From NCBI GenBank assembly GCA_963677105.1, contig OY781871.1:60001-92000 (forward strand): DNA of 32,000 bases, written 5' to 3'. The DNA comes from Candidatus Saccharimonadota bacterium. GTDB lineage: Bacteria > Patescibacteriota > Gracilibacteria > UBA4473. The first letter of the stretch is position 1; each line of letters starts with the position of its first letter. This document shows, piece by piece, positions 1-8,649 of the stretch. The translations under genes and the position numbers were made by a program. The notes below the pieces were generated by a model. The model saw nothing but the letters and a program-made list of their open reading frames with translations, was not told the origin of the DNA and ran no database searches.

Positions 1-3000
1 AATTTTTGAATTCAAAATTGCGAGAATTACTTTCCCATCTCGAATTGCCAACACATCCATTTCGTTTGCCGTGTTTTTCAATGTGTCAACATCTCCCTGT
101 AAATCGGCATAAAACTCCTGTTGTTTTTTCAATACATCATTAAATTTTTGAGTTAAAAAAGCTTTTGCTTCTTGGTTTTTTTGTTCAGTAATTCCTGTTT
201 TTATTTCTTCAAGAGCAGCTAAGCTTCTCTTTAGTTCTTCCAAATTGTCCTCTCCAATTGCAATAACACCTGCTTGTTTTTCTATTTCAGGGTTTTCAGC
301 ACTTTCCCTCATTCTAGCAGTGGCCTTTTCTACTTCAGAATTCCATTGATTTGGAGTTGGATCTGTTAATGAATCTACTCGTTCTATTTCATCTGTCATA
401 TAAGACTGAAGCGATTCATATTTTAACTTTATCAATGTTCTTCCCAATGTTGCTGGCAACGATTTTATTCTTAATATTGTTCCCATTGAATTATTCAATG
501 AAAGTCGGATAACTAATCCTATTGCTGTCGCAGTGTTTGTGTTAGCAGTACATTCCTCTGTTGATTTATTCCATGTTCCATTTTCCAAACAATTACATCC
601 TAATTCCATCCATTTCATCTTCTCTTTATGCAACTTCTCTTTTGCGTCTTTTTTCCATTTTTTTAATTCTTCTTTGAGACGCTCAAATTGTCCATCCGGA
701 AAATAAGGATAATTTATGGTTATCTTTTTTCTTTTTACATCAACAAATGGAGATTTATTTAGACACGATAATGTTGGTTCTCCCTCCTCACACGGGATCG
801 ATTTAAATTTTGGAAATTTTATTTTGAATTTTGGAAATTTGAAATTCGTAAATTCTCTCCACTGATCTTGCACCCATTGACTCAATATATCTGCCGCTTT
901 TATTTGACTATTCGTTGGTAAACTTTTTCCTTTAATAATAATTGGAAGTCCTGATTGAAATGTAATTCCACTTCCTGAAGGCGCAAAGAGTTGTTGTAAA
1001 AATTCTTGTGCTGGTGTTGCTTCATTTGCTGGTTCTAAATCAGTACATGAAGTTTGTGTATCTTCCGATGATGATCCTGATTCAGAATTTCCTCCAGCAG
1101 ATGCTCCTCCACTACCAGAAGAAAATTGTGGAATAATCACAAAACATTGAGGAGGAAATGGAATTCCTGTTGGAGACATTGAAGGATCAATAACTGGTCC
1201 TCCACAAATTGCTATTCCTACTTGTAATGACGTCGTTGGAATAATATATAATCGAAATAATGAAGTTGGCATTGGACCTGCTCCCACTGGAGGAAGTTGC
1301 GGAGCTACCCAAAAAATCGGAAATCCAATCGCTGGAACAGGAATTGGTATTGCATATGGTGGGATATAAATACTTTGTGGTCCTGGAGCAAGAAACGCCA
1401 CTGATGGAATTGCATCCAACCAAGATGCTACTTTTTTAGCACCTCCCAACATGTTTAAAAGTGCTTCACCCACGGATGGTATAGCAAACATTATTGGTAA
1501 TCCATCATCTGTTTGTTCTGTACCTAAACAATCCAAAACATCATCGGCCGTTGCTTCTGCATCAAAATCTGATGGCAACAAATCAGGAAATACCTTTTTT
1601 GTTTCACGACTACTCATTCTTAAATATGGAGATGTCGGAGCATCTTTTACTGCGTCTGAACTTCTAGCAGGAACCGTTCCATTATTTTCCCCTGAAATAA
1701 ATTGTATTGTTTCAGCTGTTCCATCTGAATGCCATGCAACGGCTACATCATCTCGTGCATCATTTTTTTCAAAATCACTTACAAAATATCGTATCGGAAG
1801 AACTTCTTCCGCTATAGAATCCCAGTTAAAAACAATATTCGCATGAGCCGGAATATTTCCAATCGTAATTTGTATCACTTTCGGCAAAACTTTTATTTCG
1901 GGCAAAGTTTCACAAGAATCACATACAAATGAAGTTTCATCAAACTGAAATCCTACCGATTTAGGAAGAACAAACTCTCCTTCAGAATACGCTTGCTGAT
2001 TTCCCGATATAACAAGAGAATGTTTAAACCTTTGTCCTGGTACGACTGTATCAATTGAACCAGAATCTTCTGTATTCATCTTATACCAGGCATCAAATCG
2101 ACGATTATCTGAAAGTTGAACAAATGTTCGAGTTCCGTAAAAATCTAATTCGCCTGACCATGAATCAGTTGCATCAATTCCATTAAATCGAACTGAAAAT
2201 TCATCCAATTGTGGAAACTTATTTATCGTTGTTTGCGGAACACCTTGATCTTCTGCTGATAAATATTTTTCATCTATTTCATCAAATCGAAGTGCAAATG
2301 ATTCTACATACTGAGCCGAATACCAACCATCTTTTCTTCCATAAGCAAACCATAAAGTATTTGCTTCGTCCGAAAGAACTAAATCCGAATATTTATCTCC
2401 ATTCAATTCTGCTGTTTTAATATCAGTAATTTTTTTCCCAATTCCTAAATCCAATTTTTTACGAGACAACACTCCCTTCTCATTCGTATGTAAGATCAAA
2501 TTTCCTTCATCATTTAATTGAATGAAATTCAATAAATTCCCATAAGAATCCTTGTGAACTACAAGCGTTTTAACTCCGTCTGCAAAACGTAATAACAATC
2601 CTGCATCACGGAAATTGTCTCGTTGATGTTCGTCTTGATATAAAACAAAAAGCCTATTTCCAGTTCTTGGGAATATTTCTGCTCGACCATCTCCATTTAA
2701 ATCTGCAGATAAAACCTGATCAATCGCTCCAAATGAACTCGTCCATAATGATTTTCCTATATCGTCGGTAAATCCTACTGAATTCGTTTCATTTTCATCT
2801 GGAACTGAAATTGTAGGATCACCAAGCAATATCATCGCGTCGCTCGCAGCAATACGAACTGATTCCCCTGCTATGTTTCCAGCAGCAAATAAAGCTCCTG
2901 GTTTCCACGACGTTGTCCAACCAACTCCATCTTCCATCAAAGCATCTTCTGCAGAAACTTTTGCTGATCGTAATATTTTTTTAGGCGATTCTAGCTTTTC

Positions 3001-8649: not shown

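Follow-up and report, generated by a model that had tools for sequence, protein, structure and literature searches.

We analyzed a stretch of 32,000 nucleotides from a bacterial contig (OY781871.1, positions 60,001 to 92,000; hereafter, the window), whose left end is occupied by a giant gene on the minus strand (1..8649). The reading frame that ends at window base 1 contains no stop over 2,897 codons. It is open to 8691, the nearest in-frame stop upstream being at 8692-8694 on the minus strand. Counted from its first ATG, at 8649-8647, the frame has 2,883 codons within the window. A first-pass annotation, made by a model from the sequence alone, had described the same frame, and its numbers were obtained again when recomputed. 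That annotation had named an in-frame minus-strand stop within 1-8649 as evidence against its claim; we looked for such a stop, and none is present.

Based on the base composition of that strand, stops are expected in 8% of codons, and the chance of an open frame of 2,897 codons is approximately 3e-106. In addition, the codon-position composition of the giant gene is strongly periodic, with G at 35% of first positions and C at only 4.6% of third positions. Both results agree with the earlier judgement that a frame of this length is implausible by chance. The gene had also been described as hidden from the track of open reading frames (ORFs). It is indeed absent from that track, but this is an artefact of how ORFs are listed, because those running off a source end go unlisted. 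Three plus-strand ORFs lie within the giant gene (1451-1846, 3695-4369 and 7110-7418) and are antisense shadows. TGA terminates 5 of the 13 other genes in the window and the standard bacterial code (table 11) therefore applies. Genetic code 25 was considered for this lineage and rejected, as TGA is a stop in the window and code 11 gives the longest ORF in all related loci except the short L062.

A search of 5.8 billion proteins identified a public protein, P0001, that is 100% identical to the translated gene over all 2,883 window residues. P0001 has 4,159 amino acids (aa; 461 kDa, isoelectric point 4.6), is encoded on a 962,416-bp contig and was deposited at NCBI and ENA without a protein name. 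Consequently, the window does not cover 1,276 residues at the C-terminus, whose codons lie beyond its left edge. Thus, the earlier description of a protein of at least 2883 aa referred to a real giant gene, but the actual length is 4,159 aa, not approximately 2,883. The C-terminus had been correctly placed outside the window, but the anchor expected there is absent from the full sequence: motif, Pfam and hydropathy scans of full-length P0001 detected no LPXTG or NPXTG motif, PEP-CTERM, SLH domain, or C-terminal transmembrane or hydrophobic helix. Similarly, no type I secretion signal, autotransporter or beta-barrel anchor, or LysM region was found in the protein. The sole strongly hydrophobic stretch of P0001 is aa 13-31, and there is no internal transmembrane helix. 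No Pfam or NCBIfam model reached its curated cut-off anywhere in P0001, and PDB sequence searches with the whole protein, with a profile of its N-terminal domain or with a profile of aa 676-1135 gave no significant match.

A family of collinear giant proteins

P0001 is a member of a large protein family. Among 60 matches from the protein search, approximately 45 were collinear giants of 3,400-4,800 aa with 22-58% identity, and the remainder shared only Cys-rich repeats with the query. Four full-length homologs from other samples are collinear with P0001 at 54-58% identity, and dozens more at 22-40%. A scan of one genome per species detected relatives in 150 genomes, the titles of which name Candidatus Peribacteria, Peregrinibacteria, Gracilibacteria, Altimarinota or simply 'Patescibacteria group'. 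The species from which the window derives was not among the scanned representatives, as the best matches were 52-56% identical.

The long frame could in principle be an assembly chimera or a decaying pseudogene, although nothing was found in favor of either, and chimeric assembly had been named in the first-pass annotation as a second observation that would speak against the gene. The strong codon periodicity of the stop-free frame of 2,897 codons and the collinearity with both the four close full-length homologs and the dozens of more distant ones argue against either artefact. Moreover, each of the 40 related loci that exceed 25 kb in length contains an intact ORF of 3,408-5,867 aa in code 11. 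Since these homologous ORFs are intact and collinear, chimeric assembly is ruled out, and the possibility of an artefact of either kind is negligible.

The extent of the family was further assessed with a profile of residues 2380-3400, which was searched against 1.84 billion cluster representatives (clusters at 50% identity). We obtained at least 435 clusters at E<1e-3, of which 273 were at E<1e-30. Among the 150 matches listed, most were 2,000-6,066 aa long and had this region at the same relative position. The shorter listed matches mostly begin or stop inside the region; they are probably fragments, so that no stand-alone version of the region was seen. Sources name the family members 'hypothetical protein', except for a few distant members called 'FG-GAP-like' or 'VCBS repeat-containing protein'. 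Taken together, the giant gene is real and under selection, and its product is part of a large family of collinear giants that is restricted to one clade. The source organism is a bacterium of the Peribacteria/Peregrinibacteria type within the candidate phyla radiation (CPR) that uses the standard genetic code, and it is tiny and probably host-dependent.

Domain architecture and the Cys-rich array

The features described below are all on the minus strand. At its N-terminus, the giant protein has a probable Sec signal peptide (aa 1-31, MYRAIGKSFRKWMSLLLIFCITFPSYSSILA/AP; 8557..8649), which was read from the sequence by eye. It has a K/R-rich start and a hydrophobic core at aa 13-31, followed by ILA/AP, in agreement with the signal peptide noted earlier at the start of the protein. 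The most hydrophobic N-terminal 19-mer has a Kyte-Doolittle value of 1.77, and the N-termini of homologs are alike.

The signal peptide is followed by an alpha/beta domain (aa 50-431; 7357..8502), defined by family conservation and by an AlphaFold2 (AF2) model whose predicted local distance difference test (pLDDT) values are mostly 80-95 over this domain. No other part of the family is as well conserved, and D151, E177, W179-H180-G181 and D294 are invariant in it. When its profile was searched against the index of 5.8 billion proteins, only fragments of the same family were retrieved. In Foldseek searches, the best PDB match of the domain, albeit a weak one, was gingipain RgpB, a member of peptidase family C25 with a caspase-like fold (4ief_D, E=0.05, probability 0.99, 187 columns, 16% identity); caspase-1 was also among the matches, at rank 31. 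There was no Pfam C25 match for the domain. Although H180-G181 is invariant, residues 33-431 contain no cysteine, and the domain is therefore not a C25-type protease, as the Cys-His dyad is missing. It may at most be a non-catalytic relative of the gingipain fold, a likeness suggested by the predicted model that serves as a lead only.

Further downstream, one or more conserved Cys-bearing domains (aa 680-1020; 5590..6612) were delineated from family alignments and the AF2 model, with invariant C684, R688, G689, C834, H861, E863, P864 and D884 and with pLDDT of 80-93 for aa 810-1020. Next is an Ig-like repeat region of the Big/invasin type (aa 1136-1520; 4090..5244), in which profiles built from the family matched other units of the same region. 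It has at least three units of approximately 95 aa each (1136-1230, 1233-1338 and 1420-1520). These internal repeats would correspond to the Ig-like domains of the first-pass annotation, but scores of P0001 are below the Pfam cut-offs (12.7 versus 34.9 bits for Big_1 and 16.8 versus 33 for Invasin_D3), and the label rests on homologs P0009, P0038 and P0039, in which Invasin_D3 and Big_1 pass the threshold.

A similar situation was observed for the FG-GAP-like repeats (aa 1960-2106; 2332..2772), which were recognized from a sub-threshold FG-GAP_3 match, an internal repeat and a loop motif. The sequence DLNGDGRAEI at aa 1983-1992 is a calcium-type DxNxDG loop. This loop and the internal repeat bear out the earlier assignment, but Pfam scores of P0001 are below cut-off (19.9 versus 26.9 bits for FG-GAP_3 and 14.3 versus 22.1 for FG-GAP), and here too the label comes from homologs. 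Since FG-GAP_3 passes at the homologous region of P0004, P0036 and P0039, the repeat is probably present in P0001 in a diverged form. The FG-GAP-like repeats are probably part of a beta-propeller.

The remaining part of the protein includes two proline-rich hydrophobic segments and the helices between them. The first segment (aa 2400-2510; 1120..1452), identified by its composition and invariant columns, contains 21 Pro per 100 aa and has the family motif IPSxAFLAPGxQxxYxPP...SxFRxYxMPTTT...C...C, with invariant P, G, R and Y and two invariant C. It is unfolded in the AF2 model (pLDDT <50) and has no known counterpart. A long alpha-helical or coiled-coil region (aa 2654-3050; 1..690 in the window, continuing past its edge) was modeled by AF2 as long helices with pLDDT of 70-88, for which Foldseek gave generic coiled coils only. 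Outside the window, the second conserved proline-rich segment (aa 3050-3350) has invariant R3060-G3061, E3276, R3289 and D3296, and the C-terminal region (aa 3400-4159) is conserved in the family and has a second loop, DxDxDG, at 3485-3494.

An array of nine Cys-rich repeats of 22-23 aa is located between the N-terminal domain and the Cys-bearing domain(s) (aa 437-668; 6646..7341), as revealed by matches to the pattern C-x-D-G-x2-N-x-D-E-x-G-x-D-C-G-G-x2-C-x2-C. One copy (aa 541-563; window 6961-7029) has lost two of the four cysteines (DVGG...EAW versus DCGG...C..C) and is probably degenerate and not disulfide-bonded like the other copies. The DNA of the array is a tandem repeat with a period of 153-159 nt and 69-73% matches; at the DNA level, the tandem array is old. 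AF2 gave pLDDT of approximately 25 across it.

The four closest homologs align with aa 1-431 of P0001 and then again from approximately aa 677, and neither the 83 loci nor the other family proteins contain the repeat pattern. Because the closest homologs skip aa 432-676 and the pattern does not occur elsewhere in the family, the array is a lineage-specific insertion. Thus, the Cys-rich repeats that had been reported for this protein are real and number nine, but they are an insertion in this protein only and not a family feature. Models of the Myxococcus Cys-rich repeat (DUF4215), pappalysin and Notch gave no match to the repeats at E<=1.

Outside the family, the Cys repeat (C..DG..N.DE.G.DCGG..C..C) was found in multiple copies in unrelated large secreted proteins (P0021, P0035, P0045, P0047 and P0053). 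These carriers belong to Bacteroidota (one with a type IX secretion system sorting domain), Woesearchaeota and Altiarchaeota (DPANN-type archaea), and their repeat regions are covered by no Pfam model. The repeat looks like a widespread extracellular module that is so far undescribed.

Gene neighborhoods in two clades

In the window, the giant gene closes a run of five consecutive genes that share a strand and are separated by short gaps. We designate the four genes upstream of it w182, w556, w797 and w1763 after the lengths of their products. The gene adjoining it upstream, w1763 (8807..14098, minus strand), codes for a highly charged protein of 1,763 aa without signal peptide or transmembrane helix, which is therefore presumably cytoplasmic. 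The protein w797 (14253..16646, minus strand) is a polytopic membrane protein with approximately seven hydrophobic helices, as judged by hydropathy, and a loop with six Cys at aa 165-365. An orphan with a single transmembrane helix (aa 409-427) is encoded by w556 (16696..18366, minus strand), which is syntenic in L001, L010 and L013. The first gene of the cluster, w182 (18371..18919, minus strand), codes for a small orphan with two moderately hydrophobic stretches, as seen by eye. No Pfam, NCBIfam or PDB match was detected for any of these four proteins.

This gene order is conserved. It recurs in L003, whose giant protein is only 28% identical to P0001 and where a nucleotidyl-transferase gene is again in front; w182 is 41% identical to the protein at the same position in that locus, and was also found in L011, L013 and L034. 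The w1763 gene is directly upstream of the giant gene in approximately 21 fetched loci, and w797 is syntenic in approximately 12, counts that are limited by contig ends. Genes downstream of close homologs are not conserved. At NCBI, one homolog of w797 (P0074) is called a 'type IV secretion system protein'. Identification of w797 as a TrbL/VirB6 protein was not supported, as Pfam scans of ten family members and NCBIfam scans of five matched nothing; its polytopic topology with a large loop is compatible with such a protein but unspecific.

The conserved cluster raised the possibility that the giant protein forms, together with w1763, w797, w556 and w182, a trans-envelope apparatus not described so far, in which it would be the extracellular arm and which would serve host-cell manipulation or uptake, its proline-rich segments inserting into or gripping host membranes. 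The maintenance of the order 182-556-797-1763-giant down to 28% identity of the giant protein, the common strand and short intergenic gaps, and the predicted distribution of the five proteins across cytoplasm, membrane and exterior would fit such an apparatus, as would the name given to the w797 homolog by one source. However, the cluster contains no ATPase or known secretion component, its sole Walker-A-like motif being a weak one in the tail of w797, and the database searches were empty for all four partner proteins. The hydrophobic segments are proline-rich rather than helix-like and are left unfolded by AF2. We consider this explanation quite unlikely.

Other genes of the window were also inspected. 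A T2SSE-family ATPase of 355 aa, PilT-like by size (23592-24659, minus strand), is located approximately 15 kb upstream of the giant gene, with the four orphan genes, a nucleotidyl transferase and DnaE in between. It is the nearest pilus-related gene, and no PilC or pilin gene is present in the window. The longest ORF of the nucleotidyl transferase (18953-20014) overlaps the end of dnaE (19909-23403) by approximately 105 nt; translation of the former probably begins at the internal Met that precedes KILILAGG, immediately after the stop codon of dnaE. Three ORFs of 156, 398 and 283 aa between secA and a GT4 glycosyltransferase gene (28410-30879, minus strand) had no Pfam match, and neither tRNA genes nor Rfam families were detected in the window. 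On the plus strand of window 1-32000, T exceeds A (11,296 and 9,462) and C exceeds G (6,690 and 4,552), with a GC skew of approximately -0.19, and the minus strand carries 13 of the 14 genes. This strand asymmetry and gene orientation are consistent with one replichore with a strong gene co-orientation bias.

A different neighborhood was found in a sister clade. In 29 loci of more distant members of the Peregrinibacteria type, the giant gene follows same-strand genes for p406, p212, a PilB-like ATPase (T2SSE, 4e-126) and a PilC-like platform protein (T2SSF, 7e-58); examples include L037 (4674-28573), L038, L060, L070 and L073. The p406 (406 aa) and p212 (212 aa) proteins have a single transmembrane helix each. 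In 10 of 11 inspected loci, one to three pilin genes are located between the PilC-like gene and the giant gene; their products start with KKGFTLIELLIVIAIIGILA, which has the canonical type IV pilin leader (G/FTLIELL). The region downstream of the giant gene (3,985-5,809 aa) was checked in ten loci, and each of them has four conserved orphans there, D1-D4, with signal-peptide-like N-termini. No Pfam match was detected for p406, p212 or D1-D4. We also asked if w182, w556, w797 and w1763 are diverged forms of p406, p212 and D1-D4, but this was rejected, as both blastp and hhalign spoke against it, with probabilities all below 4%. Some sister-clade members have a C-terminal SLH domain (aa 3991-4035 in P0036 and 3761-3811 in P0039), which lies beyond the region homologous to the end of P0001. 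This context ties the family to type IV pili and the cell wall.

The location of the sister-clade gene directly after pilin genes suggests another explanation, namely that the giant protein is a pilus-associated factor similar to PilY1/PilC, a Sec-exported non-pilin with a beta-propeller and calcium loops that rides on or primes the pilus and functions in tip adhesion or in control of extension and retraction. Like PilY1, the giant protein appears to be exported by a Sec signal and has no prepilin leader, and calcium loops of the FG-GAP type are present. Nevertheless, Pfam scans of P0001, P0036 and P0039 gave no match to the PilY1/PilC family, no sequence similarity to these proteins was seen, and the giant protein is four times the size of PilY1. 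In addition, SLH ends of sister-clade proteins speak for fixation to the wall and against movement along a filament, and no pilin genes are adjacent in the clade of the window. This role appears unlikely.

The SLH domains also bear on the possibility that the giant protein is a structural envelope scaffold of the S-layer type that has no specific attachment role. Besides these domains in distant members, the conservation of the family as one long collinear protein, not as shuffled adhesin modules, is in line with such a scaffold, and a published study reported S-layer proteins and a heavy investment in the envelope for Peribacteria (PMC4736985). On the other hand, the SLH domain of anchored S-layer and cell-wall proteins, present in P0036 and P0039, is missing in P0001, and the same L038 cluster encodes a separate SLH protein of 696 aa. 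S-layer proteins are usually far smaller, and the giant protein exceeds their usual size. Finally, the lineage-specific insertion of extracellular repeats suggests adaptation of an exposed, interacting surface. A purely structural scaffold is thus very unlikely.

Proposed function and implications

We favor the view that the giant protein is associated with the envelope and acts, together with type IV pili, as a fibrillar adhesin or a structure for host contact, and we assign this view a probability of roughly 0.6. It is favored because of the extracellular multi-domain features of the protein, the pilus and wall context in the sister clade, and the literature on related bacteria. An extracellular location is supported by the signal peptide, the lack of internal transmembrane helices, the acidic isoelectric point, the concentration of cysteines (41 of 61 are in aa 432-800), and the Ig-like and FG-GAP repeats. 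The attachment role itself is proposed from sequence, and the gene neighborhood in relatives argues for it most strongly.

Previous studies of related bacteria described proteins that resemble this family. Peribacteria have large, often Cys-rich and strain-variable extracellular proteins that were proposed to function in attachment (PMC4736985, Anantharaman et al. 2016). Those of Ca. Peribacter riflensis, a member of the same group, are up to 3,861 aa long and have signal peptides and FG-GAP annotations, and some are Cys-rich; that paper describes them in general terms only. Our protein search returned family members of 3,865-3,868 aa (P0022-P0024), whose likeness to the 3,861-aa protein is by description. 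Vampirococcus lugosii, a predatory bacterium of a sister CPR lineage, has giant membrane or surface proteins of 1,392-4,163 aa with integrin, PKD and fibronectin-type modules, which are thought to mediate recognition of the host and fixation to it (PMC8080830). Here, too, the likeness is by description, and this organism differs in using genetic code 25, compared with code 11 in every family locus that we found. In addition, type IV pili and protein adhesins were essential for epibiotic growth of a saccharibacterium (PMC10633639).

P0001 was also compared with fibrillar adhesins, including Big-domain proteins of the invasin/intimin type, giants of the SiiE/LapA type and a 7,651-aa Mobiluncus adhesin (PMC10619420). 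P0001 resembles them in its great length, its acidic composition, its calcium-type loops and its probable signal peptide, and putative Ig-like units in tandem would correspond to their stalk. Unlike these adhesins, P0001 has no LPXTG motif, type I secretion signal, or autotransporter or beta-barrel anchor, and repeats account for a small fraction of the protein, most of which is unique, non-repetitive sequence that is collinear across the family. With regard to the intimin/invasin Big_1 family in particular, P0001 is below cut-off for both Big_1 and Invasin_D3, and no N-terminal beta-barrel was found.

A fibrillar adhesin of this kind could function as follows. The protein would be exported by the Sec pathway, as its signal peptide suggests. 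It would then be retained at the envelope, for which the C-terminal SLH domain of distant relatives would serve; in P0001, which has no such domain, retention may occur via the co-encoded w797, w556 and w182. The Ig-like repeats and the helical region of approximately 400 residues could provide a long reach from the cell, as suggested by the sequence repeats and the AF2 model. Ligands might be bound by the FG-GAP-type loops, which probably bind calcium, by the N-terminal domain and by the lineage-acquired array of nine Cys repeats. Both calcium dependence and binding of host ligands are features that we infer.

Several observations weigh against an adhesin. No adhesive domain was detected in P0001 by Pfam, NCBIfam, PDB-sequence and Foldseek searches, and neither an anchor nor a ligand was identified; all Pfam matches were below cut-off. 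Linkage to the pilus operon is a feature of the sister clade, whereas the gene in the clade of the window follows four orphan genes that are unrelated to the accessory genes there (hhalign <4%). The N-terminal domain is the most conserved part of the protein, which fits interaction with a conserved self component better than with variable host ligands. Moreover, approximately 1,000 residues, comprising the two proline-rich hydrophobic segments and the helical region, have no analog in known adhesins.

A broader, speculative possibility, which we regard as rather unlikely, is that CPR bacteria of the Peregrinibacteria/Peribacteria type have a conserved apparatus for host contact that is so far undescribed, with the whole family as its extracellular arm. 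It would be built into the type IV pilus operon in one clade and, in that of the window, coupled to a different module of four genes that spans membrane and cytoplasm (w182-w556-w797-w1763). In the pilus clade, such an apparatus would be encoded in the order of pilus assembly genes, pilins, giant gene and secreted orphans D1-D4. If it exists, the two conserved proline-rich segments and the helices of 400 residues would not be a passive stalk but would do part of the work, such as taking hold of a host envelope or inserting into it.

For the window itself, this analysis mainly calls the gene correctly and assigns its product to a family. A public record of the protein already existed, and reports of giant surface proteins in such bacteria go back to 2016. 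In the literature searched, the size and collinearity of the family, its near-total lack of annotation, its linkage to pilin operons, the five-gene cluster and the Cys-repeat insertion appear to be undescribed. CPR bacteria (Patescibacteria) account for a large share of bacterial diversity and apparently live attached to other cells, and the molecules that mediate this contact are almost unknown outside Saccharibacteria. Being large, confined to one major CPR branch, nearly unannotated and located after pilin genes in many genomes, the family described here is a specific candidate for the machinery with which Peregrinibacteria and Peribacteria attach.

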